Below are positions 41,191 through 64,000 of a stretch of 64,000 bases of DNA, in pieces. The stretch covers positions 617,517-681,516 of the forward strand of contig JBMOPU010000012.1 of assembly GCA_049322955.1 (NCBI GenBank), given 5' to 3'. Below the pieces are notes generated by a model. It worked only from the letters and a program-made list of their open reading frames with translations, ran no database searches and had not been told where the DNA came from. Both the position numbers and the translations under genes were made by a program. Source of the DNA: Patescibacteria group bacterium (GTDB lineage Bacteria; Patescibacteriota; Microgenomatia; UBA10105; UBA927). Positions within the stretch are counted from its first letter, which is position 1; every line of letters begins with the position of its first letter.

Positions 41191-41272
41191 GCCCGGATGG
41201 CGAAACTGGTAGACGCGTACGCTTCAGGAGCGTATGCCGCAAGGCTTGGGAGTTCGAGTCTCCCTCTGGGCA
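41191..41272 (+). tRNA. tRNA-Leu (anticodon CAG), long variable arm, no encoded CCA
   Basis: Manual fold: acceptor GCCCGGA/TCTGGGC, anticodon loop TTCAGGA; a TATAAT box at 41172-41177. Confidence 0.8.
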
Positions 41273-41294
41273 CACGGTGTCTTGTTTTGAGTGA

Positions 41295-41336
41295 AGCGAA
41301 ATCCCGCTTGGCGGGACGAGTCCGCTTCTGGGCACA
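41295..41336 (+). other. degenerate tRNA-Leu 3'-half-like remnant (variable-arm-like hairpin + T-arm-like hairpin + CTTCTGGGCACA)
   Basis: GAGTCCGCTTCTGGGCACA matches 16/19 nt of the tRNA-Leu(CAG) 3' end GAGTCTCCCTCTGGGCACA ~60 nt upstream. Confidence 0.35.
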
Positions 41337-41369
41337 AAACAAAAAAATTGCTATAATGAGTATCTCGTT

Positions 41370-41451
41370 GCGGGTGTGGTGAAACTGGTAGACACGCAGT
41401 CTTGAGGAGGCTGTGCCGTAAGGCTTAGAGGTTCAAGTCCTCTCACCCGCA
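41370..41451 (+). tRNA. tRNA-Leu (anticodon GAG), long variable arm, no encoded CCA; its 3' end is overlapped by the integrase gene
   Basis: Manual fold: acceptor GCGGGTG/CACCCGC, anticodon loop TTGAGGA; TATAAT at 41352-41357. Confidence 0.8.
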
Positions 41452-42968
41452 CAAGAAGAGATAGCACCGTTATCAAAGGTGCAAATTGATTGATATAACG
41501 GGCTAATCTCGCGGTTCAATGTACCATTTTGACTCCAAGCTAGTCCTGAGGGGAAGATTGAACCCAAGAGTACTTTGATCTGGCTGATACTCGATCTTTT
41601 GTAGGCTTCTCCTAAATCTGCAAGTAAAGTCCTGATAAATGTTGTTACATCATCGATGTTGTATCTATCAATTGTTGCGTCGTTTTTTACAACCTGCGCT
41701 TTTACCATTCTGTCTTCAACTACAGAATTTTGCTCCTTAAATACCTCATCTGAATAGACACCTGCAAGGTTCTTTTCTACTAGGGTTTGCCTGAGTGCTT
41801 TCAGGGTCGCGATTTCTTGATCTGCCTGGCTTTTAATCTTCTGCAATCTTGCCAGACGAGTGTGATAAGTGCGATATAGAAAAGCGATAAATAGATCTAG
41901 ACATTCTTTCTTCGGGGTTACATCTTTGAGCGTCTCAATCACTGATCCTTCCAAGACATCTGCTTTGGCTGCAACTCCTTTGCAGATACCACCGCAACGA
42001 TAGTAGGCGTATCTAGCGTGTCTGCCTCTACTCCAACCACCAGTCATTCCTGTGCCACATTCTTTGCAACGGACGATCCTTCGCAGTGGAAAATCTGGGT
42101 TAGAGTGAACTCTCTTGGCTAGGGCAACTTTATTGGGATTTCTCCCGTCCAGAATCGCCTGTACTCGGTAAAACTGTTCCTCGGTAATCATTGGCACATG
42201 CTGAGCTTTGACTTCCTCACGATACGTTTTAGAAGTTAATAATCCTAGATAGAACTTATTCCTAAACAACACGTTTGCACGTTGTGCCCTAATCATAAAC
42301 TCTCTTTTTCCGTGATGTTCCCTAAGTCCCCAAGCGTTCATTAAATCTGCCATTTCTTGAAGGCTTTTACTACCAGTCGCCATCAAGTTCCAGGCTTTTT
42401 TCATCAAATCCCATGTTTTATCATCTTTAATGGCATAACCAGCTTGAACTGAGTAACCTAGTGGTACTTGGCCTGTGACAATCATTCCAGATAAGTATCT
42501 AGCCTTTAAGCCATTTCGCGATCGTTCACTGCGAATATCGTTATCAAGTTGTGCAAACCCGGCAAGAATAGTTTCTACAAGCTTTTCAGTAGGGCTATCT
42601 CCGGTAGGCTCAGTAGCCGAAATAATGGTGACACCGTTTTCAGTGAGCTTTTTTCTAATTGCTAAATAGTCGGCGGTAATACGAGAGACGCGATCAAGGC
42701 GATAAACAAATACGGCCTGTACCTTATGCTTTTGTTTTCGACAGAACTCTAAAAGCTGGATAAGAATTGGTCTTCCAATAATTGTCTTGGCTGAGCGACC
42801 TTCCTCTCTAAATACTTCCGTAATTTGGTAACCTCTTTTTTCTGCTTCTTTCCGACAAATTTCCTCTTGCGTATCCAGCGAGAAGTTATCTACCTGTTCT
42901 TCAGTCGAAACACGAAGATAAAGTACTGCTTTTTTACCGTCCGCATATATCACATTTGTTTTATTCAT
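41433..42968 (-). CDS. large serine recombinase (integrase)
   Basis: N-terminal resolvase domain (VLYLRVSTEEQ, catalytic Ser), recombinase domain, Cys-rich zinc-ribbon region; 511 aa; last 18 nt overlap tRNA-Leu(GAG). Confidence 0.8.
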   Translation of the reverse strand: MNKTNVIYADGKKAVLYLRVSTEEQVDNFSLDTQEEICRKEAEKRGYQITEVFREEGRSAKTIIGRPILIQLLEFCRKQKHKVQAVFVYRLDRVSRITADYLAIRKKLTENGVTIISATEPTGDSPTEKLVETILAGFAQLDNDIRSERSRNGLKARYLSGMIVTGQVPLGYSVQAGYAIKDDKTWDLMKKAWNLMATGSKSLQEMADLMNAWGLREHHGKREFMIRAQRANVLFRNKFYLGLLTSKTYREEVKAQHVPMITEEQFYRVQAILDGRNPNKVALAKRVHSNPDFPLRRIVRCKECGTGMTGGWSRGRHARYAYYRCGGICKGVAAKADVLEGSVIETLKDVTPKKECLDLFIAFLYRTYHTRLARLQKIKSQADQEIATLKALRQTLVEKNLAGVYSDEVFKEQNSVVEDRMVKAQVVKNDATIDRYNIDDVTTFIRTLLADLGEAYKRSSISQIKVLLGSIFPSGLAWSQNGTLNREISPLYQSICTFDNGAISSCAGERT

Positions 42969-43312: not shown

Positions 43313-43471
43313 GTATCAACTATAAATATATTTATAGTTTATATCATTATATTTATAGTGTCAAGCCAGATGTAGGGAGTATCCTTTTGCCAAAAACGAC
43401 CTCTAGGAGTATCATTCAAACAATATCAAAAACCATTAGTTCTTGATGTTAACTGCCCATCCTGGGTAGTT

Positions 43472-46991: not shown

Positions 46992-47008
46992 AGTTATATA
47001 ATGTATAT

Positions 47009-47611
47009 ATGTTACCAGAAGGTTTTGAATTAAGAACCCAATTTCCTCCAGGAGAACAGGTGAAAGTCACTCCGGCAATTCGCGAGATAAGTGAGCGATT
47101 TCGTGGACTACATTATCCGAATGCTTTTCGCGATATTCATGACTATATTTTTGATCGCATAAAAATACTCCCATATGACGAGTCTGTAGTTGCTTATGAG
47201 AAAAAACGGAGATGGAAATTAACGGCAGATGATATTTTAAGAGTAGGTACAGTTGTCGATACTAAATACTGCAATGACATGGTTAGTCTGTTTTTAGCAA
47301 TTTCTCGAGGCATAGGTTTCGATGCCAAGGTTGCGAAAGTATTTAATCGAAATATTGCAGTTCATTCGTTAGCACTTGTTGACTCACCTCAACTTTCTGA
47401 TCAATATCTTATTAATGCTGGGTCAAAGGATAAATATTGGATTGAACCATTCCCAAGAGAACAAAAATTACAATTTGGGGCTCATTTACCTAATGATTGG
47501 ATTTTATGGAAAGCTGACGTAGATCAATGGGCAATGGGATTAAATGATTCTTCACAAGAAACAACGACAATTATGGCAGATGCCAGACAATTATTTGCTC
47601 CTAAGGCATGA
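47009..47611 (+). CDS. transglutaminase-like cysteine peptidase superfamily protein
   Basis: KYCNDMVSLFLAISRGIGFDAKV matches the TGase-core Cys motif (C..F/LF.A..R..GIPAR); downstream His (AVHSLA) and Asp. Confidence 0.5.
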   Translation: MLPEGFELRTQFPPGEQVKVTPAIREISERFRGLHYPNAFRDIHDYIFDRIKILPYDESVVAYEKKRRWKLTADDILRVGTVVDTKYCNDMVSLFLAISRGIGFDAKVAKVFNRNIAVHSLALVDSPQLSDQYLINAGSKDKYWIEPFPREQKLQFGAHLPNDWILWKADVDQWAMGLNDSSQETTTIMADARQLFAPKA

Positions 47612-48383: not shown

Positions 48384-48698
48384 TTATAATTTTGCACTCG
48401 GCACAACCTCGCTGATTCTCTTCTCGTCAAAATACAAATCTCTCTCAATCCCTATACCAAACTGTCCACGATAGCTTTCAAGCTCAGTTAGGGAAAAAGA
48501 ACCCCATTCGTCATTCCAATCCCCAAAGATTGAAACGAAGCCGAAAAATTCTTGACTCGCTGGATCGTACTCGGTGGCGTACCATGTACCCGCGCCAGCT
48601 GGATTGAAGAACTTAGCAACTACGATGGGATCGCTGCTGTCCTCCTGTCTGCCTAGCTTGGCGAATCTGGCTAAAAGCTCCTTGGTTAATAGTTTCAT
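48384..48698 (-). CDS. DUF2958-family protein (common on conjugative plasmids/ICEs)
   Basis: MKLLTKEL...VAKFFNPAGAGTWYATEYD...FGFV...WGSFSLTELES...GIERDLYF matches the DUF2958 pattern from memory. Confidence 0.55.
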   Translation of the reverse strand: MKLLTKELLARFAKLGRQEDSSDPIVVAKFFNPAGAGTWYATEYDPASQEFFGFVSIFGDWNDEWGSFSLTELESYRGQFGIGIERDLYFDEKRISEVVPSAKL

Positions 48699-48949
48699 AA
48701 TTTCTCACCTCCTTCTTGGCTTCTTCCCTAAAATTAATGGTTGGGAAGTATGGCCATACTTCCCATACCTGGGAATTTTTAAAGCGGGGTGAATTTTGCA
48801 AGGGCAAGCGAAGCGCAGTTTATTGAAGGCGTAGCCGGAAACCCTTGCGAAATGAGGGGTAAGGCCCCTTCTTTAAGCAGAACTAACTACTCTATACAAA
48901 CTGTATAGTTAAAAAGAAGACAACCATCATAGTAAAAACTTATCAATCA

Positions 48950-49387
48950 TTAATCAGATTCATTTTTTGGAATACTGAGTAATTTTTCGATCCTTTTCAT
49001 ACGCTTATCCCGCCCTTCGATAAAACTTCTAGCGAGAGTAGAAAAAATGTATAGTCCCAGGCCAACACCTATAAAAATGTAGGCAACTGTAAAAAGTTTT
49101 GTCGCTGTGGTAGTTGGATGTAGATCACCGTATCCGACAGTTGCTAGTGTAACAACTGAGAAATAAAAAGAGTCGATATAACTCCAGCCTTCATATGATG
49201 AATAAAAAGCAGTGCCCACAATCAGCAAAATAGATAGCGTTGAAATAGTCGCGATAAATCCTGGTGGTGGTTTTACGCCAGTAAGCTGTTCATGTATTTC
49301 GGAAAGTAGCCAATGTAAAATACGTTTCATAATAGCAATAATTTTATTGATCTTTATTATTAATATTCTTCCGAGTGTTATAGTCAA
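48950..49387 (-). CDS. small two-TM potassium channel (pore-only, TVGYGD selectivity filter)
   Basis: FYFSVVTLATVGYGDLHP pore helix + filter between two TM helices; a likely start is the internal ATG at ~49327. Confidence 0.7.
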   Translation of the reverse strand: MTITLGRILIIKINKIIAIMKRILHWLLSEIHEQLTGVKPPPGFIATISTLSILLIVGTAFYSSYEGWSYIDSFYFSVVTLATVGYGDLHPTTTATKLFTVAYIFIGVGLGLYIFSTLARSFIEGRDKRMKRIEKLLSIPKNESD

Positions 49388-49482
49388 TCATAGTTTATGA
49401 ACTTTTTGCTTCCTATAAAAATGTAAGGGTAGGTTCAAAGACAGAGATGATTGAGAGACGCCAGCAAATTGTTTTTGTTCTT

Positions 49483-50697
49483 TTATTCATGTCTCAGTGC
49501 TTCTATCGGTGACAGTTCACTTGCTTTTTTAGCCGGCGTCACGCCAAAAATTATGCCTACTCCGGCAGAGACAGCGAATGCTAAAGCTATTGACCACCAA
49601 GCAACAGTAATAGGCATGAAGTTTCCGATAAGAAGTGCTCCACCTGCACCAAGCAAAATCCCGATAATACCGCCTCCAACGGACAAAATGGTAGCTTCGA
49701 GTAGAAACTGTGTCAGAATAACTTCCGGTTTGGCCCCCAAGGCTTTTCGCAAACCGATTTCCTGGGTGCGTTCCGTCACTGATACCAGCATGATATTCAT
49801 GATGCCAATACCTCCCACTAACAAAGAAATAGCAGCAATACCCCCCAAGGCAATTGTCAAAGTATTCAATATACTAGAAACAGTCGATAGAATTTCCTTC
49901 TGATCAAGCACGGTAAATTCACTCGATTCCAACCTTCGACTCATAATACTTTCAACCATTTCTACCGCAGGGGTGACGTCTTCGGATGATGTTGCCTGAG
50001 CAAAAATAACACCTAAATGATTCTGATTAAATTGTCTTTGAGCGACAGTTACAGGAATGAACACCTTATCATCTGAGCTCATACTACCTTGGCCACCAGC
50101 TTCTTCAATGACCCCGACAATGGTGTATCGGTAATCACCGAGTTTAATTTTTTCACCGATAATATTGGTGGTTCCAAAAATATCATCGGCAACTTTGTAG
50201 CCGACGACGGCTACTTTTCTGCCAGAATTAACGTCCGCTTCAGAGAAAAAATCACCTGAAGCGAAGTTGGTACTACGCACTTTGGTGTAATCCGCAGTTG
50301 TACCAAATATCTGCGCCATTTGCGACTCTCCCTGATAGCGAATCGGTGCAGACCCCACAACCATTGCAGCTGCGTGTTTTATATATGGCACTTGCTCTTT
50401 AATTGTCGCTAAATCGTCCATCTCAAGTTTTGAAGCGGACATGGCGGCAAAACTACTCGACATAGCTCCACCACCAGCAACATTATCTAAGTCAATTTCT
50501 CCTGGCATCACCATCACCAGATTGGACCCCATATCCTCCATCTGGCTGGTTATGTAATCCTTAAGCCCAGAGCCGACGGAAACTAGAAGAATAACTGAGG
50601 CAACCCCAATAATGACACCGAGTGAGGTGAGCACTGAACGGTTTTTATTGGCTTTAATTGCCCTGAGGGCTACTTTTAATAATGATTTAAATGGCAT
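49483..50697 (-). CDS. MacB/FtsX-family ABC transporter permease
   Basis: N-terminal TM, large periplasmic domain, C-terminal FtsX-type 3-TM bundle; 404 aa. Confidence 0.75.
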   Translation of the reverse strand: MPFKSLLKVALRAIKANKNRSVLTSLGVIIGVASVILLVSVGSGLKDYITSQMEDMGSNLVMVMPGEIDLDNVAGGGAMSSSFAAMSASKLEMDDLATIKEQVPYIKHAAAMVVGSAPIRYQGESQMAQIFGTTADYTKVRSTNFASGDFFSEADVNSGRKVAVVGYKVADDIFGTTNIIGEKIKLGDYRYTIVGVIEEAGGQGSMSSDDKVFIPVTVAQRQFNQNHLGVIFAQATSSEDVTPAVEMVESIMSRRLESSEFTVLDQKEILSTVSSILNTLTIALGGIAAISLLVGGIGIMNIMLVSVTERTQEIGLRKALGAKPEVILTQFLLEATILSVGGGIIGILLGAGGALLIGNFMPITVAWWSIALAFAVSAGVGIIFGVTPAKKASELSPIEALRHE

Positions 50698-50705
50698 ATA
50701 TATTG

Positions 50706-52467: not shown

Positions 52468-52476
52468 AGTGCACCT

Positions 52477-53536: not shown

Positions 53537-54145
53537 ATGAAATACAACACAATACCTTCAAACGAAGTTATAGAAAAAACACAAAAAGCACTTGAGGCAA
53601 ACGGGATGCAAGTCATAATTGTCGAAAATGGCAGACAAGCAAAAGAAAAAGCTCTGTCTCTTATCCAAAAAGGCGCAAGCGTTATGACTGCCACTTCCAC
53701 AACGGCTCAGCAGATCGAACTTGATAAAGCAATCGATGAATCTTCAGATTTTGAATCTTTGAGAAAAAAAATTATGGCCCTTCCCCAAAGCGAGCAACGG
53801 GCTCAGGCAAGAAGGATTAATAGCTCACCTGATTATGTAGTGGGAAGTGTTCACGCAGTGACAGAGAACGGAAAAGTTGTTATTGCCTCAAACTCAGGCA
53901 GCCAGCTTGCCCCCTATGCTTTTTCGGCGGCAAAAGTTATCTGGGTAGTAGGTGCGCAAAAGATCGTTAAAAATCTTGAAGAGGCAACGAAACGCATTGA
54001 GGAATATACCTTTAAATTAGAAGATGAGCGAATGATGCAAGTGTATGGCATGCACAGCGGTATCAGAAAAACTCTGATTGTTGACTCCGAAGTCATGCCT
54101 GAGCGTATCACTATTATTCTGGTCAAAGAAAATCTGGGGTTTTAA
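53537..54145 (+). CDS. LUD-domain (LutC/YkgG-like) protein
   Basis: 202 aa with the lactate-utilisation-domain pattern (VIWVVGAQKIV...). Confidence 0.5.
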   Translation: MKYNTIPSNEVIEKTQKALEANGMQVIIVENGRQAKEKALSLIQKGASVMTATSTTAQQIELDKAIDESSDFESLRKKIMALPQSEQRAQARRINSSPDYVVGSVHAVTENGKVVIASNSGSQLAPYAFSAAKVIWVVGAQKIVKNLEEATKRIEEYTFKLEDERMMQVYGMHSGIRKTLIVDSEVMPERITIILVKENLGF

Positions 54146-54146
54146 A

Positions 54147-54758
54147 ATGAAGCTAGCAATTTTTGGGGCGACTGGCCCAAGCGGACAACTATTGGTAAAA
54201 CAGGCCTTACGAGCAGGTTATAATGTTACCGTGCTTGTCAGGGACCCTGCAAAATTAGGGGTTCAGAATAAAAACTTGACTGTTATAAAGGGTAACGTTT
54301 TAAATTACGATGATGTTGATAAAACAGTCAAAGGCCAGGATGTTGTATTAAGCGCCTTGGGAGTCAAACCACCAAGCCGGGAGAAAGTTGTCGGACCCGC
54401 AACCAGAAACATAGTCCGTGCCATGGTAAGTCATAGTGTAAAAAGGCTCATTGTAGAATCCGCGTTTTTTATGGACGAGTCCGTAAGAAAGAATCTGTTT
54501 ATAAAACTCCTTACCGTGACGTTTATGAAAGGTCTTTACGATGATAAAAAAATACAAAATGAAGCACTTCAGAAAAGCGGACTTGACTGGACAGAAGTAC
54601 GACCAACTATGCTTACTAATGGTCCCAAAAGCTCCTATAGAATAAACGTTAAGCCTGGAATGTTTTCAAAAATTTCAAGAGCAAATGTGGCGGATTTTAT
54701 GCTGAAAGAGATTGTCGACGGTAATTTTAAAAATAAGTCAGTCATAATAACAGAATAG
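54147..54758 (+). CDS. NmrA-like / atypical SDR NAD(P)H-binding oxidoreductase
   Basis: MKLAIFGATGPSGQLLVKQAL Rossmann motif at the ATG 54147, right after the LUD stop. Confidence 0.7.
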   Translation: MKLAIFGATGPSGQLLVKQALRAGYNVTVLVRDPAKLGVQNKNLTVIKGNVLNYDDVDKTVKGQDVVLSALGVKPPSREKVVGPATRNIVRAMVSHSVKRLIVESAFFMDESVRKNLFIKLLTVTFMKGLYDDKKIQNEALQKSGLDWTEVRPTMLTNGPKSSYRINVKPGMFSKISRANVADFMLKEIVDGNFKNKSVIITE

Positions 54759-54761
54759 CCT

Positions 54762-55142
54762 ATGCCCCAACAAGAATATATTCCGGGAGTTTGTAATATT
54801 GGACCTGCTGAAACAAAGAGACGAAAACAATCGGGATGGGTAGGGCTTGCCTTAACCGTTATCCTCCGGGGAATCCTTGTTTACATTAATGCCGCACCGG
54901 TCTGGCAACTGCTTCTCTTTTTTCCAGCGATGATGTCAGCAACAGGATTTTTGCAGGCATACATGCATTTCTGCGCTTATTTTGGCTTTACCTCGCTTTT
55001 TAATTTTGGCAATGTCGGTAAAACCGATTCAGTCCAGCAGGTAGAATTTCGTGTCCGGGATAGACACAAAGCATTGCAAATCGTAATCTATTCCGTGTTT
55101 ATCGGAATACTAGTTTCTGTATTAGCAGTATACATAAAATGA
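54762..55142 (+). CDS. small multi-TM hypothetical membrane protein
   Basis: 126 aa, 3-4 predicted TM helices. Confidence 0.4.
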   Translation: MPQQEYIPGVCNIGPAETKRRKQSGWVGLALTVILRGILVYINAAPVWQLLLFFPAMMSATGFLQAYMHFCAYFGFTSLFNFGNVGKTDSVQQVEFRVRDRHKALQIVIYSVFIGILVSVLAVYIK

Positions 55143-56080
55143 CTACTTTATCTCTCCCTCAGCCTGTGGCAATTTCAGTCGACCGCATTCATCCCGAAAG
55201 TCTGCCGGGCTATATTCACCTCAAAGTCGCTGATCTTGACAATCAAATTAGGTTTTACCAGCAGGTGATCGGCTTGCAGTTGAACTGGCGCAAGGATAAA
55301 AACGCCGCGCTCGGCGTCAACGGACACGATCTAGTGCGCATGAGTCAAGTGCAGGACGGTAAGCGGTACCGAGGCGTGACCGGTATGTATCACTTTGCCA
55401 TTCTATTTCCCAGCCGTCGTGAACTGGCGCGCGTGATTGCTCGCCTATTTGATAAGAAGTATCCGAATTATCCAACCGACCACATCATGACCAAGACCAC
55501 CTACCTCGATGACCCCGAAGGCAATAACATTGAGTTGTACTGTGAGTCGCCCGAAGATGGGGTGAATGAGATCAAAAAGGGGCAGTTTTATGTCCGCCGC
55601 GCTGACGGCTCCATTAGTGACGGGCGTGAAGCTATGGATTTGGATGCGCTTTTCTCAAACCTGACTGAAGACGACCTCCTCAACCTGCCCGTCCCACACG
55701 AAACGCGCATGGGACATTTCCATCTCTACGTCGCTAACTTGGAGGAGACACGCAAGTTCTATCACGACCTACTCGGCTTCGACGATATGGGGACTGCGAG
55801 TGGCTTCCGCATGGGAATGTTGTCTGCTGGAGCGTATCACCACCACATCGGATATAACACATGGCAGGGAGAGGGCGCGCCTCCTCCCCCCGATGACGCT
55901 CTGGGTTTGTTTTACTACACTTTTAACCTTCCCAATGTCCGGGAATTGAAAAGAATGGAACATTTACTGGAAACAAAAGATATTTCCTTCGAACGCCGCC
56001 CCAACGGTCTATTCATGAGCGACCCATCCCGAAACTCCTTACTCCTAACCACTGCTGAACTAGCGCGAGAGGGCAGGTGA
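55139..56080 (+). CDS. two-domain VOC (glyoxalase/bleomycin-resistance/extradiol dioxygenase) family protein
   Basis: Two tandem VOC modules (HLKVADLDNQIRFYQQVIGL...; HFHLYVANLEETRKFYHDLLGF...); noticeably higher GC than the surrounding island. Confidence 0.65.
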   Translation: MTTLSLPQPVAISVDRIHPESLPGYIHLKVADLDNQIRFYQQVIGLQLNWRKDKNAALGVNGHDLVRMSQVQDGKRYRGVTGMYHFAILFPSRRELARVIARLFDKKYPNYPTDHIMTKTTYLDDPEGNNIELYCESPEDGVNEIKKGQFYVRRADGSISDGREAMDLDALFSNLTEDDLLNLPVPHETRMGHFHLYVANLEETRKFYHDLLGFDDMGTASGFRMGMLSAGAYHHHIGYNTWQGEGAPPPPDDALGLFYYTFNLPNVRELKRMEHLLETKDISFERRPNGLFMSDPSRNSLLLTTAELAREGR

Positions 56081-56260
56081 AGAATTATAAGATCTCTAAT
56101 TGTGTTGCGCGAGGCATAATGGCAAATCAAAATTTGATTGGAAAATTGAAAAATAGGTAAATTGTTTTATATATTAATAGTTTTTTGTTACTCCATGATT
56201 TGCTTTCTTCTTGACTTTCTGCCTGGTTAGGATAATAATTCCCTCAAATTTACAAGAGCT

Positions 56261-56285
56261 GCCCCTCCGATAGGGGCTTTTTTGT
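56261..56285 (+). terminator. intrinsic terminator (GCCCCTCCGATAGGGGC + T6)
   Basis: Perfect 6-bp GC stem plus U-run downstream of the VOC gene. Confidence 0.6.
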
Positions 56286-56336
56286 AACTAGTCCTGCCTA
56301 AAGTTATAAATTATTGATTTATATGGAGGTCGGACT

Positions 56337-56672
56337 ATGAATAAAAAAATAATTGTTACTTCTTCTCTAGCCATCACGGCACTAATGTTTGCGTCACCAG
56401 TCTTTGCTGCTTCAGCCGACGTAACCAAAATAGAAACCTTCATCAAAAGCATTATCCAAATATTAGTTACCCTTGCCGGACTTATCTCCGCTGGTTTCTT
56501 TGTTTGGGGTGGCGTTGGCTATATCACAAGCTCAGGCAATCCAGAAACTCTCGACCGTTCCAAAAAAACTATCATGTACTCTGCCATAGGTTTAGCTGTA
56601 GTACTTGGTGCGTTTGTGTTGACTAATATCATCTCTGATTTAGCGACTGGAGCATTTGGCTCGGCGCAGTAA
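56337..56672 (+). CDS. VirB2/TrbC-like conjugative pilin candidate
   Basis: Signal peptide + two hydrophobic helices (ILVTLAGLISAGFFVWGGVGYI...; AIGLAVVLGAFVLTNII), 111 aa. Confidence 0.5.
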   Translation: MNKKIIVTSSLAITALMFASPVFAASADVTKIETFIKSIIQILVTLAGLISAGFFVWGGVGYITSSGNPETLDRSKKTIMYSAIGLAVVLGAFVLTNIISDLATGAFGSAQ

Positions 56673-56700
56673 GTCGGCCAATATTGGAATATGAACAAAT

Positions 56701-57990
56701 ATGAAATTATTAGTATTGGCTGTAACCATACTCATAGGACTTCTATCACCGTCGGTAGCATATGCTTCAACTAACGCACCTACGGAGGTAACAGCGTTTA
56801 CTAATGACGCTCTTTCAATAGTTACACTTATCTCGACCGCAGCAACGGTCTTTTTTTTAATTCGGGGTGGCTATATCTACATTACCTCCACTGGTAAGCC
56901 GGACGCTTTAGAAGAAGCCAAGAAAACTATCAGAAATGCCTTGATAGGCTTGGTGGTTGTTTTTGCTGCCAGTTCGATTGTCTCGTTTCTCTCTGGTGCA
57001 TTAGTCGGTGACGGTTCAACTACTTCCACATCCAACTTACCTATTACCCAAATTGAGAGTGTTGCGCCTAGTGATGGCTTAACCCAAGTACTTATTGATG
57101 CAGTCAACGGCTTTATTCAAAACATTGTTGAAAGTTCCACCAAGCCAATAGTTGATGGCATTATGACCTTTCTTTCAACCACACCATCACTTCTAGAGAA
57201 TGCTTCGATCGTTAAATTCTGGCTAATCATGCTCGGGATTACCGACACGTTATTCGTGCTGGTTGTAGCGCTTCTAGGCCTTCAGTTTATGAGTGCTTCC
57301 ACCTTTGGATTTGAAGAGATTGAATTTAAACACCTGCTTCCCCGAATTGGCTTGGCTTTTCTCGGAGCCAATATTTCGCTTTTCCTGGCTGACTACGCCC
57401 TAAAAGCGAGTAATGCTCTAGTTTCTGGTGTCATTTCCGCTACTGGAGGACTAAATCACGCATGGATTAGTAACGCCGTTACTATCTCAAGCATTACTAA
57501 CGGTACTGCACCATTTATTATCCTGATTTTCCTACTCATATTCCTAATCGTGGCGATTGTGCTACTTCTTATGTACATAAGTCGCCTGATAGTGATCTCG
57601 CTTGGTGCTGTGCTCTCACCATTTATTTTCCTACTCTCAGCAATCCCCAAGACAGCCGACTTTGCCGAGATGGCAGTAAAAGGGTACTTTGTTTCAGTAT
57701 TTACCATCTTCATCCATGTGGTGACGATTCAGCTTGCGGGTACTTTTTTGTCTCTCCCTGAACAAACTAATAATTCGCTCATCTCAATCGCTGTCGCGAT
57801 TGGGTTACTCTTAACTCTGCTTAAAATTCCCTCATTCATGATGCAACTCATCCTCTTTTCTAGAAGTGTAGGAGCAGTTCGCCATATGGGTAGTCAAATC
57901 ACCAATGTGTTAAGTACTGACTCTAGCTCAAACATGTCATACAAAGGCACCAAATCGGCCAAATTGCCTAGAAGGAGTGCCAACCTATGA
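56701..57990 (+). CDS. fusion of a second VirB2-like pilin domain to a VirB6/TrbL-like polytopic membrane domain
   Basis: Residues 1-105 parallel the 111-aa pilin-like protein; residues ~150-400 contain 6+ TM helices typical of VirB6-like proteins. Confidence 0.5.
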   Translation: MKLLVLAVTILIGLLSPSVAYASTNAPTEVTAFTNDALSIVTLISTAATVFFLIRGGYIYITSTGKPDALEEAKKTIRNALIGLVVVFAASSIVSFLSGALVGDGSTTSTSNLPITQIESVAPSDGLTQVLIDAVNGFIQNIVESSTKPIVDGIMTFLSTTPSLLENASIVKFWLIMLGITDTLFVLVVALLGLQFMSASTFGFEEIEFKHLLPRIGLAFLGANISLFLADYALKASNALVSGVISATGGLNHAWISNAVTISSITNGTAPFIILIFLLIFLIVAIVLLLMYISRLIVISLGAVLSPFIFLLSAIPKTADFAEMAVKGYFVSVFTIFIHVVTIQLAGTFLSLPEQTNNSLISIAVAIGLLLTLLKIPSFMMQLILFSRSVGAVRHMGSQITNVLSTDSSSNMSYKGTKSAKLPRRSANL

Positions 57991-58460
57991 GAACTACGAT
58001 AATTCCAGCTCAGATTACGACTGTTGAAGATAAAGTGGCTGGCTCACTCAATATGACTCAGGTATTAATCCTGATGACGCCGATTCTTTGGACTGCTCTC
58101 ATCTACACTCTTTTTGCACCTACTATGAAGCTCGTGCCCTATAAGCTTGGGCTCATTGGCGTCGTGATCGTGATCTGTCTAATTCTCGTTATTCGGATTA
58201 AAGACAAAATAGTAGCTGAGTGGCTTGGAGTGGTACTCAGGTATCAATTCCGCCCTAAGTACTGGCTCTATAACAAAAACGATACTACTAACCGCATTAT
58301 TGATATTCCTGATATCCCAGACATTGCCCTTGTTAAACGAAAATCAACAAAGAAGGTCTCTAGCGATCAAAAGACTGAAATAAATATTTCTGACCTTGTT
58401 CGTCTCGAGCAATTAATCGACTCAGGCAAGGTAGCCGTTCGTTATCAAATGAAGAATTAA
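57987..58460 (+). CDS. VirB3-like small membrane protein
   Basis: Two TM helices; located immediately upstream of VirB4. Confidence 0.45.
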   Translation: MRTTIIPAQITTVEDKVAGSLNMTQVLILMTPILWTALIYTLFAPTMKLVPYKLGLIGVVIVICLILVIRIKDKIVAEWLGVVLRYQFRPKYWLYNKNDTTNRIIDIPDIPDIALVKRKSTKKVSSDQKTEINISDLVRLEQLIDSGKVAVRYQMKN

Positions 58461-58464
58461 AACT

Positions 58465-59082
58465 ATGAATATCTTTAGTAAATCAAAAAAGTCTAGCAGT
58501 CGAGGACAAATCCAGATTAAAGAAGTCGTGGATAATATCCTCGTACTCCCTGGTAACGAATATCGCCAGATTTTAGAAACTTCATCGGTTAACTTTGAGC
58601 TCAAGAGTGAGGAAGAACAGGATGTGATTATCGATAGCTTTCAAAACTTCTTAAATTCGTTACCGTGTGAAATCCAAATATTAGTGAGAGTGAGAGAAGT
58701 GGATATTGATCGCTATGTCGAAGATATTGGTAAAACCAAAGACAAAGAAACCATTCCTGCCTACAAAAAGCAGATTGAAGGTTACTGCTCGTTCGTTAAA
58801 AAACTTGTCTCTGGTAACAAGATTCTTTCCCGCCGTTTCTATATTGTTATTCCTTACAAGCACGCGGAGCGTCATCAAGATATGAAACTCATCAAAGAAC
58901 ATTTAAACCTTGAGAAAGACATTATAATCAAAGGCTTGGAGAGAATGCAAATGAAAGCACGAAGTTTAACTGGCCTTGAAATTCTCAATTTATTTTATGG
59001 TTTCTACAACCCTGAAAATCTGAAAACTCAGGCCATAACGAGGGAAACGGTCGAAGCCTTACTAAAGAACAACTATGTTTAA
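58465..59082 (+). CDS. VirB4-like ATPase, N-terminal domain fragment (split gene, part 1)
   Basis: N-terminal domain pattern of Gram-positive VirB4/TrsE (ILVLPGNEYRQILETSSVNFELKSEEEQ...FQNFLNSL); ends 8 nt after the start of part 2, in another frame. Confidence 0.55.
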   Translation: MNIFSKSKKSSSRGQIQIKEVVDNILVLPGNEYRQILETSSVNFELKSEEEQDVIIDSFQNFLNSLPCEIQILVRVREVDIDRYVEDIGKTKDKETIPAYKKQIEGYCSFVKKLVSGNKILSRRFYIVIPYKHAERHQDMKLIKEHLNLEKDIIIKGLERMQMKARSLTGLEILNLFYGFYNPENLKTQAITRETVEALLKNNYV

Positions 59083-60874
59083 CTTAAAGAAAAGAATCAC
59101 TAACCTCAAACCGATTAAAGCTTGGCAAAAGAAGCGCAAACTCAAAGTCATGACAAATCAGGCGGTCAAAATAGCGTTTGGTACACAGGATCAAGTGGAT
59201 TTAATATCCTACTCAGGCCTCAAAGAGGAATCCTCGTATTTGCAGATTAACGATAGATATGTCCGCACCTTGTTTGTTTCTGGATATCCCTATGTAGCTT
59301 CAACTGGTTGGCTCAACAACCTCATCAACTTCAACCACGATATCGATATCAGCTACCATATCGAGCAAGTTGACCCGCTTACTGCCCTGCCCAAACTAAT
59401 CAGAAAAATAACTGAGCTTGAGTCCACCAAGCGTACCATGCTTAAAGAAGGCAAAGTCATAGGGAGCGAAATTACTGATCCTCTTGAATCCGCCATGGAG
59501 CTTAAAGACAAAATCCAGCGGGGCATGGAAAAACTCTTTCAAATCTCAATCTATATGACGATTAGTGCGGAATCGCTGATTGAGTTAAACAAAGTCACCA
59601 AACTTTTAGAAACAGTCATGCAAACAAGGCTTTTCTACATCAAGTCTGCCACCTTTCAGCAAATCGAGGGGTTACAGTCCATTCTCCCTAGAGCTGAGAA
59701 CAAACTCGCGCAAAAACGTAACCTTGATAGCTCTAGTGCTGCCTTAACATTTCCTTTCGTCTCATCTGAACTCGTACAGGAATCAGGCATCCTCTATGGC
59801 ATTAACAAATCAAATAACTCATTAGTAATTATCGACCGATACTCTCTTAACAATGCCAACTCTATAATTTTTGCACAGTCTGGATCGGGCAAAAGCTATA
59901 CCGCTAAAGTAGAGATCTTGAGACATCTCATGCAGGGCACCAAAGTCATCATTATTGACCCTGAGAGGGAATACAAACAACTGGCTGCAAGTGTGGGCGG
60001 AACATATATCAAACTCTCAGCCACTTCCAAAGAGAAAATTAATCCGTTCCAATTCTCTCAGCACTCAGTTACATCGGAAAATAACTTAGCCGAGCATATT
60101 CAGGATTTAACTGAGCTTATTTCTCTCATGGTGGGGTCACTCACCTCAGAGGAACGTGCGGTAGTGGATCGAGCGCTACTTCTTACCTACAAAGAGGCCA
60201 AGCTAACTCCTCGCAAAAACGCTAAAAAGCAAAAAGAAGTTGAATACCCACTCCTGAAGGATTTCTACAAAAACCTCAAAACCATGAAGCATAGAGATTT
60301 ATGCGACAGACTCGAGCGATTTGTTAAAGGTTCGCTATCAACCGTCTTTGATTCTCAAACTAACATTAAACTAGATAACCGCCTGATAGTCTTTGACATC
60401 AAAGACCTAAATGAATCAATCAGGTCAATCATGATGATGGTGGTGGCCAACTTCGTAAATAATGAAGTAAAACAAAATCCTCAAAAACGAATGCTAGTTA
60501 TTGATGAGGGATGGATTCTCCTCCAAGAGCCAGAAAGCGCCAGATTTATCTCAGGACTTGTCAGACGTGCTAGAAAATATTATCTAGGTGTCACAATTAT
60601 TTCTCAACAAGCCAATGACTTCCTCAATCAAGATTATGGAAAAGCAATCGCGAGCCAGTCTTCACTTAGAGTCCTAATGCGCCAAGACACGACCACCATC
60701 AAAAAAGTGGCTGATGAATTCCATTTATCTGCTTACGAACAACATTATCTGCTGACCTGTGATCGCGGTGAAGCTTTAATTATTGCCGATCAAAATCATG
60801 TGGCAGTCAAAATTGTAGCCTCAGAGCAAGAACACCCATTTCTGACTACTGATCCCCGGGAAGTCTATATCTAG
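59075..60874 (+). CDS. VirB4-like conjugation ATPase (CagE/TrbE/VirB4 family), central + ATPase domains (split gene, part 2)
   Basis: Walker A AQSGSGKSYT, Walker B LVIDEGWIL; N-terminal part of this piece matches the VirB4 middle domain (RTLFVSGYPYVASTGWL). Confidence 0.8.
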   Translation: MFNLKKRITNLKPIKAWQKKRKLKVMTNQAVKIAFGTQDQVDLISYSGLKEESSYLQINDRYVRTLFVSGYPYVASTGWLNNLINFNHDIDISYHIEQVDPLTALPKLIRKITELESTKRTMLKEGKVIGSEITDPLESAMELKDKIQRGMEKLFQISIYMTISAESLIELNKVTKLLETVMQTRLFYIKSATFQQIEGLQSILPRAENKLAQKRNLDSSSAALTFPFVSSELVQESGILYGINKSNNSLVIIDRYSLNNANSIIFAQSGSGKSYTAKVEILRHLMQGTKVIIIDPEREYKQLAASVGGTYIKLSATSKEKINPFQFSQHSVTSENNLAEHIQDLTELISLMVGSLTSEERAVVDRALLLTYKEAKLTPRKNAKKQKEVEYPLLKDFYKNLKTMKHRDLCDRLERFVKGSLSTVFDSQTNIKLDNRLIVFDIKDLNESIRSIMMMVVANFVNNEVKQNPQKRMLVIDEGWILLQEPESARFISGLVRRARKYYLGVTIISQQANDFLNQDYGKAIASQSSLRVLMRQDTTTIKKVADEFHLSAYEQHYLLTCDRGEALIIADQNHVAVKIVASEQEHPFLTTDPREVYI

Positions 60875-60876
60875 CT

Positions 60877-61503
60877 ATGAATCCGAAGCTAGTATTTACA
60901 CTCTGGTCATTTCGCAAAGAACTTAAATTCGCCCTCTTAGCCTTCTTAACGATCCTCATGTTGCCTGTGATTGCGGTTATCCTGCTAACTCAGGTTGGTA
61001 TCAATGTCATCTCTGACAAGCTCATTGATCAAAATTCCACAACTCAGGCCATTCAGATCAAAGATCCAACAACTGGAGAGGTAGTCAAAGAAATTAATCC
61101 GACAGTGGTCTGGCCTACAAAAGGGGTAATTACTCTGGAATTTGCACAATCGAGCATGTACCAAGTATTTCATACAGGAATTGACTTAGCTAGCAAACTG
61201 GATGAGCCGGTAAATCCTGCCATGGACGGCACTGTTATTTATGCAGGTGAAATATTCTGGGGTTACGGCAAGCACGTCATTATTGACCATGGTAATAATG
61301 TGGTGACTATCTATGCCCACCTAAACAAGATTTACGTCTTTAAAGGCCAAAAGGTGACCGTCAGTGACGTGATTGGTGGCCAAGGTCAAACTGGTTGGGC
61401 AACAGGAGTTCATCTTCACTTTCAGGTGAATGTGTATGGGATACCAGTGAATCCGAGAGTGTTCTTAGACAATCCCGCATCAGCCGATTTAACAAAGAAC
61501 TAG
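60877..61503 (+). CDS. membrane-anchored M23 (LytM-type) peptidoglycan endopeptidase, T4SS-associated hydrolase
   Basis: N-terminal TM; HTGIDLA ... DHGNNVVTIYAHL ... HLHFQV zinc-binding motifs. Confidence 0.75.
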   Translation: MNPKLVFTLWSFRKELKFALLAFLTILMLPVIAVILLTQVGINVISDKLIDQNSTTQAIQIKDPTTGEVVKEINPTVVWPTKGVITLEFAQSSMYQVFHTGIDLASKLDEPVNPAMDGTVIYAGEIFWGYGKHVIIDHGNNVVTIYAHLNKIYVFKGQKVTVSDVIGGQGQTGWATGVHLHFQVNVYGIPVNPRVFLDNPASADLTKN

Positions 61504-61590
61504 GGTAATTATGCCTATGAAGTACTATAATGTAGATATAATTAATTTTTGTTGATAGCAAATAAATAGTAGCCGAATAAACATAAAATT

Positions 61591-63423
61591 ATGTGGAGCG
61601 ATAACGAAACAGCCATAGACCTTTTAAACATTGAACATTACGTTTCTACTGTTATTGAACTAGCTACGGACGAAACACTATTGCCAGTAACTATTGGTGT
61701 ATTTGGCGATTGGGGCAATGGGAAGTCTAGTCTACTGCAAATGGTTAAAGAGAAATTAGTTGCAGAAGATAAAGTTGTTTGTCTATATTTTAACGGTTGG
61801 CTATTTGAAGATTATGACGATGCGAAAGCTGCTTTAATGGGAACTATTCTTGATGAAATTGAAAAGTCTCCAAAATTTCTTACTTCAGCAAAGAAAACGC
61901 TAGATAATCTTCGCAAAAAAATAAACTGGCTCGGTCTTATGGGGGTTGCGGGGAAATACGGAATGGGTTTGATGCTTGGTGGACCCGTTGGTGGGATTGG
62001 TGCGATTGCGATGGACGTAGGACAAAAGGTTTTGAAAAAGGTAACTACTGGCGAGGTTGCGGATGCAACTCAAAAAATATTCAATGACAGTATTCCAGAT
62101 TCTACGCAAGTTAGAAAGAATATCCAAGAATTTAAAGAAGAATTTCCTAAGTTGTTAGAAGAGTCAAAAATTGAAAAATTGGTTGTAATAATTGATGATC
62201 TGGATCGATGTTTACCAGATACTATAATCAACACATTGGAAGCAATAAAACTTTTTCTTACATCAAAAAATACATCATTCCTAATCAGTATTGACGAAAG
62301 AGTAATAAAATACGCAATTACTGATAGATACAGCAAATTTGATTCACAGCAAAAGGAGAGCATATCGAGAGATTATCTTGAGAAACTTATTCAAATTCCT
62401 CTAAGAATCCCACTCATGAACAAAAGCGAGATGAAGTCGTATATAAATTTACTATTTGCTTCAAAACATTTGTCGGCAGATGTATTTACAACTCTTCTCG
62501 CATCCGTAAACGAGTCTCGGAAAGGTTCAAATTTTAACGTAGGCATTGACCTGCCTTGGTTCAAGAAAAATTCAGCAAGCGCTTTGGGTAAAGGATTGGA
62601 TGAAGAGTTGATGATTACAGAGCAAATAAATGATCTACTATATGATTTCCTGAAAGGAAACCCGAGGCAAGTAAAGAGATTTATCAACGCTTTGCTTCTA
62701 AGAATCAAGCTTGCTCATCTTCGAGGAGTTACACTCAAGAAACAGGTTTTAGCTAAACTCATGGCGTTGGAGTATATGAAAATAGACTATTTTAAAACTC
62801 TTGCGGACTGGCAAAGCCTTCAAAACGGGCAACCAAAGGAAATTAAGGAATTGGAATCAGTAAATCACGAAAAAGATGAAGACGAATATAAAAAATGGAC
62901 ATCTGATCCATGGGTTAGAAAATGGCTTAACACAGAGCCTAAATTAGGTGATGAAAATTTAGAGTCCTACTTCTATATCTCCAGAGATTCTCTCTCTCAT
63001 TTTTCTACACCATCAATTGAATTAAGTGAGACAGAACAGACAGTATTTGATGAACTTGTTTCAGGATCAGAAGCACATAAAATAAAAGGAAAGGATCTTT
63101 TCAAAAACCTTACTGAACAAGAAGCTTCAAGAATTGTTAGGGTTCTAGTTGAGAGACAGACAAAAATTGATCCTGATTCTGATGATGGTGATTTGGTTGC
63201 ACTAATTTCATCTTTACCAAACCTTAAACGAGAAGTATCAGACGATGTTATTAGCTTTTTGACTATGGCCCCAGAGAAATCAATACCACCAGCCGTGGTA
63301 GCAGAGATAAAAGGATTACAAAAGAGTGCAACAGGTGATCAGAAGGCGAGAATAGATTCTGTGTTGGAGAAATTTAAAAAATCTACAATAAATAAGCAAT
63401 TAGCCAAAGCAGTGGATTTATAA
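61591..63423 (+). CDS. KAP-family P-loop NTPase
   Basis: FGDWGNGKSS Walker A, hydrophobic/TM insertion between Walker A and Walker B (GLMGVAGKYGMGLMLGGPVGGIGAIAM), Walker B LVVIIDDLDRC. Confidence 0.7.
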   Translation: MWSDNETAIDLLNIEHYVSTVIELATDETLLPVTIGVFGDWGNGKSSLLQMVKEKLVAEDKVVCLYFNGWLFEDYDDAKAALMGTILDEIEKSPKFLTSAKKTLDNLRKKINWLGLMGVAGKYGMGLMLGGPVGGIGAIAMDVGQKVLKKVTTGEVADATQKIFNDSIPDSTQVRKNIQEFKEEFPKLLEESKIEKLVVIIDDLDRCLPDTIINTLEAIKLFLTSKNTSFLISIDERVIKYAITDRYSKFDSQQKESISRDYLEKLIQIPLRIPLMNKSEMKSYINLLFASKHLSADVFTTLLASVNESRKGSNFNVGIDLPWFKKNSASALGKGLDEELMITEQINDLLYDFLKGNPRQVKRFINALLLRIKLAHLRGVTLKKQVLAKLMALEYMKIDYFKTLADWQSLQNGQPKEIKELESVNHEKDEDEYKKWTSDPWVRKWLNTEPKLGDENLESYFYISRDSLSHFSTPSIELSETEQTVFDELVSGSEAHKIKGKDLFKNLTEQEASRIVRVLVERQTKIDPDSDDGDLVALISSLPNLKREVSDDVISFLTMAPEKSIPPAVVAEIKGLQKSATGDQKARIDSVLEKFKKSTINKQLAKAVDL

Positions 63424-63425
63424 AT

Positions 63426-64000
63426 ATGGGAACTTCTAAATCATATTCTGGTCCCTCAGGGAAAAACCCCTTAATTCCCGATTGGGCTGAAGATGGTGCA
63501 AGCATTCTTCCCCAAGACAGCTCCACTCAAGATACAACGAATCCAAACGAAGGTTCAGCTGAAGCCAATACGAATCAGACAAATATGCCTCCAACACCTA
63601 ACCCAGCTGCACTAGAGTCTTGGGGAGATGTAAAGGGAAACTTTACTAGGTATGCAGGGAATTCCTCATCTTCAGCAAGCGGTCGTAGTACATTGAGAAG
63701 TTTTGTAAGAGCCCAAGGAGGTGCGAAGAGCGCTTCTAGCAACTCAAGAAGAGGCCGGAGTGTAGTTCAAAATATTGGTGGCGTACTTTCTGGCTTAGCT
63801 CAGCAGGGAACTAAATTTGTCTATGAAGGTTTTAATTTTCAAGAATGCGTTGGTAAAACATCCACAGAATTATTGGCAACATTGGTCGAGCTTGTGGCTC
63901 CCGATAGCGATGACTTAGAAAGTATGATTGCACGAAATGCATCGATTGAAGCTTTTCAAAAATTATTTGAAATATTTGATATTAACGCACAAGGCTTAGA
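63426..64000 (+). CDS. hypothetical protein, N-terminal fragment (runs off the window end)
   Basis: ATG 3 nt after the KAP NTPase stop; open to the window end; Ser/Asn/Thr-rich low-complexity N-terminus. Confidence 0.4.
   Translation, partial: MGTSKSYSGPSGKNPLIPDWAEDGASILPQDSSTQDTTNPNEGSAEANTNQTNMPPTPNPAALESWGDVKGNFTRYAGNSSSSASGRSTLRSFVRAQGGAKSASSNSRRGRSVVQNIGGVLSGLAQQGTKFVYEGFNFQECVGKTSTELLATLVELVAPDSDDLESMIARNASIEAFQKLFEIFDINAQGL

Follow-up and report, generated by a model that had tools for sequence, protein, structure and literature searches.

The ATPase VirB4 of type IV secretion systems (T4SSs) is encoded in ~80% of 3,035 Patescibacteria genomes, where it forms its own clade within MPF_FATA and occurs with VirB2-like pilins, TrsD and PrgI (Quinonero-Coronel et al. 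2025, PMC12102498). VirB2-like pilins are normally missing from monoderm T4SSs and are present in those of Patescibacteria (PMC12102498, PMC12857230). Only 109 relaxases (58 of them MOBC) were counted alongside 2,474 virB4 genes, 15 near virB4 and 39 near t4cp (PMC12102498). Because relaxases are rare, the T4SSs of the phylum are viewed as largely past conjugation. A 2025 FEMS review presents them as essential for epibiotic growth, as found in Southlakia by Wang et al. 2023 (per the review, PMC12857230). Transfer between Patescibacteria classes was concluded to be rare (PMC12102498), and almost nothing is known about gene exchange in these reduced, host-dependent organisms. Here we describe a probable integrative conjugative element (ICE) in a 64,000-nt stretch of DNA (the window) from a Patescibacteria metagenome-assembled genome (MAG). 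We delimit both ends of the element at a tRNA-Leu(GAG) gene and report its empty site, its presence/absence polymorphism, its gene content, its family-wide conservation and its host-independent distribution.

The T4SS of the element resembles the described Patescibacteria loci in its VirB2-like pilins, PrgI/VirB3, TrsD-like protein, MPF_FATA-related VirB4 and M23-type hydrolase, which come in the same order and without outer-membrane components. Those loci are chromosomal, often near dnaA, and mostly lack a relaxase, with t4cp elsewhere, whereas here the T4SS sits in an integrase-bounded, presence/absence-polymorphic island beside a type IV coupling protein (T4CP) and a MOBC relaxase candidate. 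The original prediction, made from the sequence of the window, held that a T4SS island in such a host would be notable. A T4SS as such is common in the phylum; what is unusual is its linkage to relaxase, T4CP and integrase in a mobile island. Most likely it belongs to the small share of loci with a linked relaxase in PMC12102498, a survey that delineated neither elements nor attachment (att) sites and whose supplements do not list the assemblies found here. Literature searches on ICEs in Patescibacteria, the candidate phyla radiation (CPR) and Saccharibacteria returned no paper delineating such an element. The searchable literature also seems to hold no description of where this one ends, of its target and empty sites, or of its family structure and cargo slots.

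Several Firmicutes MPF_FATA ICEs use large serine recombinases, as this element does. It also shares with Firmicutes MPF_FATA elements (CTn2-type, with CD1110 and CD1115; pGO1, with TrsD and TrsE) a VirB4 that passes the CD1110 cut-off, a T4CP with a weak CD1115 match and a monoderm architecture, and with pGO1 the split arrangement of TrsD and ATPase. It differs from them in its VirB2-like pilins and pilin-VirB6 fusion, in a MOBC instead of a MOBP, MOBQ or MOBT relaxase and in its host phylum, and no VirB8-like or adhesin gene was found in the island. MOBC systems (TraX of pAD1, MobC of CloDF13) likewise have a PF13814/MOBC-class protein with an N-terminal winged helix-turn-helix (HTH), encoded beside the coupling protein; direct repeats like those that TraX is described to bind were not found in the element.

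Islands and ICEs that enter tRNA genes by tyrosine integrases are alike in using a tRNA 3′ end as target, in leaving the tRNA intact and in carrying defence or resistance cargo. In contrast to these, the present element has a large serine recombinase whose open reading frame (ORF) ends antisense inside the tRNA, a core of only ~6 bp (CCGCAC) formed by the last bases of the tRNA, and a decayed tRNA-like sequence as the element arm of attR. Mycoplasma ICEs (Mbov_0395/0397 families) resemble it in their pilin-like conjugal protein and VirB4 (E = 3e-7 and 7e-91, both below the equivalog cut-offs) and in their wall-poor or reduced-genome hosts. They use a DDE transposase and, to our knowledge, have no tRNA target.

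Ends, target site and empty site

With a probability of roughly 0.75, we read the island as an ICE of ~26.7 kb inserted at the extreme 3′ end of tRNA-Leu(GAG), from position 41453 to the equivalent of 68181 (positions beyond 64000 are window equivalents read in contig L001; L-numbers denote the contigs compared). GC content is 0.498 over positions 1-41452 and 0.407 over 41453-64000. In a sliding profile it stays at ~0.48-0.52 up to 41 kb and at 0.37-0.45 from 42 kb on, and the drop from ~0.50 to 0.41 coincides exactly with the tRNA-Leu(GAG) 3′ end, between 41452 and 41453. The AT-richer DNA predicted from ~41.45 kb is delimited by a sharp compositional break. The window proteins correspond to NCBI MFZ5535170-MFZ5535206 of a Patescibacteria group bacterium MAG (990,597-bp contig; Ddl is MFZ5535249), in keeping with the Patescibacteria-like host suspected beforehand, and Candidatus Gottesmanbacteria is among the labels in the 90%-identity clusters of these proteins, which makes a host from the Microgenomates-type lineages probable.

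Homology to four empty-site contigs (L002, L022, L110 and L113) ends exactly at 41452. L002, the closest genome in the species collection, and L022, a metagenome contig (~97% identical), match the window up to this base and then pass abruptly into housekeeping DNA encoding flavodoxin, a Ddl-family ligase, a tRNA cluster, CofD and UvrC. L110 and L113, obtained from other samples by a lookup of the Ddl protein, are 99.989% identical to window positions 32409-41452 over 9,044 bp. In both, the tRNA-Leu(GAG) 3′ end runs directly into the flank with a 155-aa ORF, flavodoxin and Ddl, and the P′ arm at 41453-41500 is absent from the empty sites. Since DNA this similar exists without the island, the element is presence/absence polymorphic within essentially one strain, and it is currently mobile. 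Composition, empty sites and profile searches, the three points on which the predicted tRNA-Leu-associated ICE could have failed, all favoured an island.

The right end, expected outside the window, lies ~4.2 kb past it. L001, an independent Logan contig, is 100% identical to window positions 55700-64000 (8.3 kb) and ends at ...CGGAGAGCGGTTCAAAATAAGAATCGTCCTCCGCAC. Its terminal 48 nt recur in L107 and L108 (Collierbacteria MAG contig) with a host tRNA-Val directly after them, and the right-end sequence ...TCGTCCTCCGCAC is common to the three contigs; the end coordinate and the element length follow from this abutment. By NCBI numbering, the gene at 33.5 kb and Ddl have 43 proteins between them. 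Subtracting nine host genes and the Ddl-side flank leaves room for ~32 island genes, which fits the predicted end within ~2. L027 was tried as a right junction and rejected for its unrelated context.

With a slash marking the junction, attL reads ...CTCTCACCCGCAC/AAGAAGAGATAGC (short form ...CACCCGCAC/AAGAAGAGATAGC), attB in L110 and L113 reads ...CACCCGCAC/TAGCGAACATGG (with a longer left side, ...CTCTCACCCGCAC/TAGCGAACATGG) and the element arm of attR reads ...AATCGTCCTCCGCAC/. The predicted junctions are ...TCGTCCTCCGCAC/TAGCGAACATGGC for attR, ...CACCCGCAC/TAGCGAACATGGC for attB and ...TCGTCCTCCGCAC/AAGAAGAGATAGC for attP. Common to the att sites is the core CCGCAC at the extreme end of the tRNA, and the right arm of the element is a decayed tRNA-Leu-like sequence. 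The acceptor-stem strands co-vary across occupied sites of different hosts, indicating that the whole tRNA is host-derived and that crossover takes place at its last bases. At 41452-41455 the sequence is ...GCACAA when the site is occupied and ...GCACTA in the empty site of the matching strain, while some empty alleles in the L002/L022 comparison read ...GCACCA and encode CCA. These alleles place the crossover where an encoded CCA would sit.

Assembly breaks recur between the 115-aa ORF and the T4CP gene (L018, L020, L023), and five contigs (L001, L111, L114-L116) end at or beside att junctions. The recurrent breaks fit strain-level heterogeneity of the element in many samples.

Predicted genes for integration, DNA processing and transfer

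Nearly all gene calls of the original prediction were reproduced by Pfam above gathering thresholds (Table 1). Judged by its sequence, the island has the gene set of an ICE, with a recombinase whose att sites can be defined and for which an empty-site allele exists, a MOBC-class relaxase candidate, a T4CP, VirB4 and accessory parts. The gene recognised beforehand at the tRNA-Leu boundary does encode a large serine recombinase, with Resolvase catalytic domain, recombinase domain and zinc ribbon. Its last 6 codons lie antisense to the tRNA 3′ end (...SSCAGERT, then stop; 20-nt overlap), and across the reconstructed attP the ORF gains 30 codons, reaching 541 aa. Most tails among 120 recombinase homologues (P0121-P0240) end in ...CA[G/D/E]ERT and stop; others, such as ...GNRTRDLLLGKETFY, resemble other tRNA genes read antisense. 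In our reading the recombinase family as a whole would target tRNA 3′ ends, and the differences between the tails point to more than one tRNA gene as target.

The 115-aa partner ORF is always found upstream of the recombinase in L016, L018, L021, L024, L045 and L109, and its product, 95% identical in L016, is a candidate directionality or accessory factor. Searches against PDB sequences, PHROGs and NCBIfam gave no family match for the 115-aa, 165-aa, 200-aa, 83-aa and DUF2958 proteins. The divergent intergenic region that follows is nearly identical between the window and L016, although DNA identity is 74-83% in the genes on either side, making it a candidate operator, promoter or alternative origin of transfer (oriT). 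At L109:2604-6035 a recombinase with an excised-form type of C-terminal tail has no tRNA adjoining it. As an IS630-like DDE_3 transposase and a BrnT/BrnA toxin-antitoxin follow instead of the right end of the element, L109 gives no clear evidence of a circular form.

The predicted VirD4/TraG-like coupling ATPase was borne out by three T4CP domains above cut-off. Its long N-terminal membrane region has two hydrophobic segments (DUF8128 in homologues), and it matches NCBIfam TraD and CD1115 weakly. Next to it lies a gene originally described as replication-relaxation-like, in an island where no canonical MOB relaxase had been recognised. The family assignment stands, and its meaning changes. In CONJscan, proteins of PF13814 (Replic_Relax) count as MOBC-class relaxases (PMC5357655), so a relaxase candidate is present; the match is above the gathering score and covers the full length. 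PF13814 belongs to the PD-(D/E)XK superfamily and was once read as a transcriptional regulator (PMC3424549), and for its prototype, TraX of pAD1, a winged HTH has been described at the N-terminus (PMC12857230). An AlphaFold model built with 54 homologues (pLDDT 88.5) has a winged HTH followed by an alpha-beta-beta-beta-alpha-beta core, so the N-terminal domain of MOBC relaxases appears to be present in the candidate as modelled. Conserved residues are E97, P148-D149 and E167; Foldseek matches to nicking and restriction endonucleases are weak (E = 0.03). A PDB sequence search for solved structures gave no significant match (best E = 0.31, T-cell receptor chains).

Two further backbone genes lie between the relaxase candidate and the first large cargo block. 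The 165-aa protein is present in L009, L010, L016, L017 and L019 (74% identical in L016), and the DUF2958 protein, correctly named in the original prediction, is 93-95% identical in L010 and L016. Upstream of the DUF2958 gene is a non-coding block conserved in L010, L016, L019 and partly L021. It contains a perfect 12+12 palindrome (TGGGAAGTATGG/CCATACTTCCCA, 48742-48765) and two more hairpins, and its 89% DNA identity to L010 is the highest in the element. Rfam returned only chance-level matches for it, far below gathering scores. Judging from these sequence features, the block is our best candidate for oriT.

The T4SS operon is matched by T4SS profiles of Pfam and NCBIfam. Two pilin-domain genes and a TrsD-like gene stand directly upstream of virB4. 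The VirB2-like pilins called originally are upheld by PF18895 and PF04956 above cut-off in two proteins, the shorter of which is 91-92% identical in L010, L011 and L102. The longer is fused to a polytopic domain (8 predicted hydrophobic segments in the whole protein), and its full-length alignment with a homologue in L118 shows 37% identity (E = 2e-58). Because the fusion is polytopic and its homologue matches TrbL_4 just below the cut-off, the VirB6-like label is reasonable. A VirB3-like gene precedes virB4 in all relatives. The 205-aa TrsD/TraC-like protein matches positions 5-173 of NF045971, and the TrsD model NF041427, below cut-offs; in L118 the TrsD-like part and VirB4 are fused. Since this ORF matches the N-terminal ~170 positions of the NCBIfam model of VirB4, VirB4 is split as in TrsD/TrsE.

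VirB4 itself passes the NCBIfam equivalog cut-off of the CD1110 family NF045971 (370 bits vs 325). The M23 peptidase, the other call that held here, comes after VirB4 in every relative and is the likely cell-wall hydrolase of the system. No outer-membrane core family (VirB7/9/10) was matched by any island ORF. The system is of monoderm type, as 'Gram-positive-type' had implied, but with VirB2-like pilins the label fits only in part.

These parts point to the following cycle, of which circle formation, the site of oriT, the function of the 115-aa ORF and transfer by conjugation are inferred. The large serine recombinase would recombine attL with attR and release a circle, probably assisted by the co-translated 115-aa protein; in the circle, its ORF would be 30 codons longer. 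The MOBC-class relaxase, with its winged HTH and restriction-endonuclease-like domain, would nick oriT, for which 48699-48870 is the best candidate. The VirD4-type coupling protein would then pass the DNA to the monoderm-type T4SS, made up of the split VirB4, the VirB3-like protein, the pilin-VirB6 fusion, the VirB2-like pilin and the M23 wall hydrolase. In the recipient, the recombinase would insert the circle at ...CCGCAC, the end of tRNA-Leu(GAG). Exchangeable cargo occupies three internal slots, here an efflux ABC system, a K+ channel, detoxification-type enzymes, QatABCD and a NERD protein.

An element family across Patescibacteria

The same backbone recurs with variable cargo in L009-L013, L016-L019, L021 and L102-L108. 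Its constant left part consists of the recombinase, 115-aa partner, T4CP, MOBC protein, 165-aa protein and DUF2958 protein, followed by a slot. The middle runs from pilin and pilin-VirB6 fusion through the VirB3-like and TrsD-like proteins to VirB4 and M23, again followed by a slot, and the right part is HTH, 83-aa ORF and phospholipase D (PLD) nuclease. Elsewhere the slots hold a type I restriction-modification (R-M) system (L010, a 1.05-Mb genome), an SNF2/MmeI-like system (L011), SMODS with copper and thiol-disulfide genes (L102), or an acetyltransferase, EamA and a 1590-aa protein (L106-L108). Family cargo consists mostly of defence systems. In L016/L023/L025, L021 and L045, at least three host contexts unrelated to one another, the recombinase gene likewise adjoins tRNA-Leu(GAG). 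There and in L024 the two genes overlap by 20 nt, as in the window.

VirB4 has relatives in >100 database clusters at 90-97% amino acid identity (Collierbacteria, Microgenomates, Nomurabacteria and others), and the relaxase has 171, with Shapiro-, Collier- and Microgenomates MAGs among the named sources. Close relatives of VirB4, relaxase and recombinase come from Collier-, Shapiro-, Levy-, Woese- and Nomurabacteria MAGs, the recombinase family being more diverse than the other two. Element proteins share 62-85% identity with those of L021, compared with 35-52% for host orthologues. The VirB4 of L108 (Collierbacteria) is 96.5% identical to that of the window, whereas the partial SBP_bac_5 proteins of the flanks do not align significantly. 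Judged by these protein comparisons, the element is far more conserved than its hosts. Its GC content is 0.38-0.43 in hosts of 0.39-0.50. The nearest VirB4 outside the tight group (62% identical) and the next (55%), both 50%-cluster representatives, belong to the same operon type; the second has an adjoining T4CP and no visible relaxase. Relative to four relatives, VirB4 has dN/dS ~0.02 with dS > 1, and the other seven backbone genes compared have dN/dS of 0.02-0.09. Purifying selection on the backbone genes is therefore strong, and the copies are old but functional.

Alternative explanations

Several points weigh against conjugation as the function of this island. Transfer, a circular form and nicking were not observed, our data being those of sequence. 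L001 stops at the right junction, so the attR junction of the source genome is predicted; exact scans of IMG/VR viral contigs, which carry little weight here, found neither the attP junction nor the conserved palindrome. The nuclease fold of the relaxase candidate is suggested only by topology, conserved acidic residues and weak Foldseek matches, and no canonical (D/E)XK lysine was identified in it. No VirB8-like component was detected by Pfam and NCBIfam profiles. The TrbL call is transitive, the L118 homologue matching TrbL_4 at 25.2 bits (cut-off 27), and the VirB3-like call, made from its PF12666 match and its place before virB4, scores 25.9 bits, just below the cut-off of 27. With dS > 1 between copies, spread across lineages was not recent. 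Most Patescibacteria T4SSs have been concluded to be specialised for non-conjugative roles (PMC12102498).

The strongest alternative is a site-specific island whose T4SS serves epibiosis (contact, effector delivery or uptake from the host bacterium) and which spreads, for example, by natural transformation, with Replic_Relax as a regulator or replication factor. Southlakia needs its Patescibacteria T4SS to grow as an epibiont and relaxases are missing from most loci (PMC12102498, PMC12857230), PF13814 was formerly read as a transcriptional regulator (PMC3424549), and the operon matches that of relaxase-less loci such as L118 (pilin, pilin-VirB6 fusion, VirB3, VirB4, M23). We nevertheless consider this explanation improbable. 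The adjacent T4CP and MOBC genes are co-conserved with T4SS and integrase throughout the family, and conservation of the element far exceeds that of its hosts. Since the entire island is missing from a strain of 99.989% identity, cells can do without this T4SS, which is thus unlikely to be essential for epibiosis.

Less likely still is a composite of separately acquired elements at one tRNA hotspot, for instance an integrase/relaxase mobilisable element, a T4SS island and a defence island. GC content varies from 0.37 to 0.45 inside the island, cargo differs between relatives, and L024 carries a 7.6-kb island with a related recombinase and no T4SS at the same tRNA-Leu(GAG), all of which speak for a composite. 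Yet the left module, the T4SS operon and the right-end module (HTH, 83-aa ORF, PLD and tRNA-like arm) recur together and only the slots change, no internal att-like copy or second integrase was seen among the island ORFs of the window, and L110 and L113 lack all 26.7 kb together. A prophage or a fault of assembly or binning, for which one could cite the GC contrast with the flank and the frequent assembly breaks at island borders, is rejected as highly improbable because an independent Logan assembly repeats 8.3 kb at 100% identity, the tRNA/recombinase junction was assembled in several independent samples and no ORF matches a capsid, terminase or tail family (Pfam, PHROGs).

As an ICE, the element is of a known kind, found in a phylum where conjugation has been doubted. 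It offers a concrete test case, with defined ends, a 6-bp core, a near-identical empty-site strain, a candidate relaxase and oriT, a Patescibacteria-type T4SS and one backbone that carries different defence systems by host (Qat, type I R-M, MmeI-like, SMODS). Conjugation in the phylum, DNA transport by its pilin-bearing T4SS and the spread of defence genes are now testable. As a genetic tool, the integrase/att pair could also be of use in organisms that are very hard to manipulate. A wider picture, tentative and on balance doubtful, is that the pilin-bearing monoderm-type T4SS typical of Patescibacteria acts in this element family as a working conjugation machine, moving DNA from one ultra-small epibiont to another or between epibiont and host, that the 'essential' chromosomal T4SSs are domesticated ICE descendants, that the family is the main vehicle of defence systems among Microgenomatia-type lineages, and that the C-terminus of the integrase switches between integrated and excised states.

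Cargo and neighbouring features

The cargo operons predicted to be interspersed in the island occupy the three exchangeable internal slots. The slot of cargo 1 holds other genes in other family members. Within it, the K+ channel-MacB-ABC-HlyD-TetR block is inverted between window 48950-53037 and L016:590-4615, the copies being otherwise collinear. Cargo 2 has a slightly higher GC content (0.45). Cargo 3 continues beyond the window in L001 with QatB, QatC, QatD and a NERD protein, after which come the right-end genes HTH_31, 83-aa ORF and PLDc_2 nuclease and the attR arm. PADLOC recognised four consecutive genes (QatA, E = 1e-126; QatB, 2e-41; QatC, 2e-106; QatD, 2e-71), so that QatABCD is complete in one operon as KAP NTPase, QatB, QueC-like QatC and TatD-type QatD. 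The KAP NTPase had been assigned to the right family and counted with the T4SS; as QatA of a complete defence system, it is cargo.

Table 1. Features of the island and its left boundary in window coordinates.
Feature	Position	Strand	Evidence and remarks
tRNA-Leu(CAG)	41191-41273		ARAGORN, Rfam
tRNA-Leu(GAG)	41370-41452	+	Integration target; 3′ end is host arm of attL; ARAGORN, Rfam
Large serine recombinase, 511 aa	41433-42968	-	Pfam Resolvase, Recombinase, Zn_ribbon_recom above gathering score; motif YLRVSTEEQ
attL element arm (P′ arm), AAGAAGAGATAGCACCGTTATCAAAGGTGCAAATTGATTGATATAACG	41453-41500	+	Identical in L016, L025; near-identical in L021; other host contexts
Conserved partner ORF, 115 aa	42965-43312	-	Start/stop overlap with recombinase gene
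Divergent intergenic region	43313-43471		20-bp palindrome ACTATAAATA/TATTTATAGT, twice
T4CP, VirD4-type, 869 aa	43472-46081	+	Pfam TrwB_AAD_bind, TraG-D_C, T4SS-DNA_transf above cut-off
MOBC-class relaxase candidate, 257 aa	46218-46991	+	Replic_Relax PF13814; ORF open from 46182
ORF, 200 aa (small cargo)	47009-47611	+	No family match; absent from L010, L016
Conserved backbone protein, 165 aa	47601-48098	-	N-terminal hydrophobic anchor, transmembrane 5-23
DUF2958 protein (backbone)	48384-48698	-	PF11171, E = 1e-19
Conserved non-coding block (oriT candidate)	48699-48870		~170 bp upstream of DUF2958 gene
Cargo 1	48950-53458	-	K+ channel, MacB-type permease, ABC ATPase, HlyD-type adaptor, TetR, HxlR (Pfam)
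Cargo 2	53537-56080	+	LUD-domain, NAD(P)H-binding (NAD_binding_10), 126-aa membrane and glyoxalase/dioxygenase-fold proteins (Pfam)
VirB2-like pilin, 111 aa	56337-56672	+	PF18895 (T4SS_pilin), PF04956 (TrbC) above cut-off
Pilin fused to polytopic TrbL/VirB6-like domain, 429 aa	56701-57990	+	PF18895, PF04956 at N-terminus
PrgI/VirB3-like membrane protein, 157 aa	57987-58460	+	PF12666; two hydrophobic segments
TrsD/TraC-like protein, 205 aa	58465-59082	+	PF26593
VirB4-type ATPase, 599 aa	59075-60874	+	Pfam P-loop_TraG, AAA_10
M23 peptidase	60877-61503	+	PF01551, E = 3e-28
Cargo 3	61591-64000	+	QatA, start of QatB; continues in L001
KAP NTPase (QatA)	61591-63423	+	Pfam KAP; PADLOC

The host flank encodes PilM (type IV pilus assembly, by its NCBI name) at 471-1496, part of a surface-filament system separate from the T4SS pilins of the island.

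The tRNA-Leu(GAG) gene is flipped relative to Ddl and flavodoxin in the island-bearing relatives L016, L023, L024, L025 and L045. It is unflipped in the empty sites L002, L022, L026, L028, L030, L110 and L113, and also in the window. The orientation of a neighbouring Val-Phe-Gly-Gln tRNA cluster changes independently of this, and local inversions of tRNA genes are also seen where the element is absent. We considered that the recombinase might invert the element and the tRNA as one unit.

tRNA-Leu-like sequences lie beside the functional tRNA-Leu(GAG) at L028:1700-1840, just 3′ of position 11473 in L042 and just 3′ of position 5971 in L057. All three carry a 19-nt GC-rich palindrome, CTGCCTGCGCAGGCAGGCG, after the D-arm; these interrupted sequences could be pseudo-tRNAs, intron-bearing tRNAs or old att scars. 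On a related Patescibacteria contig (L055:5706-5779), ARAGORN predicts a tRNA with a CUA anticodon, labelled Pyl, which may be an amber suppressor.

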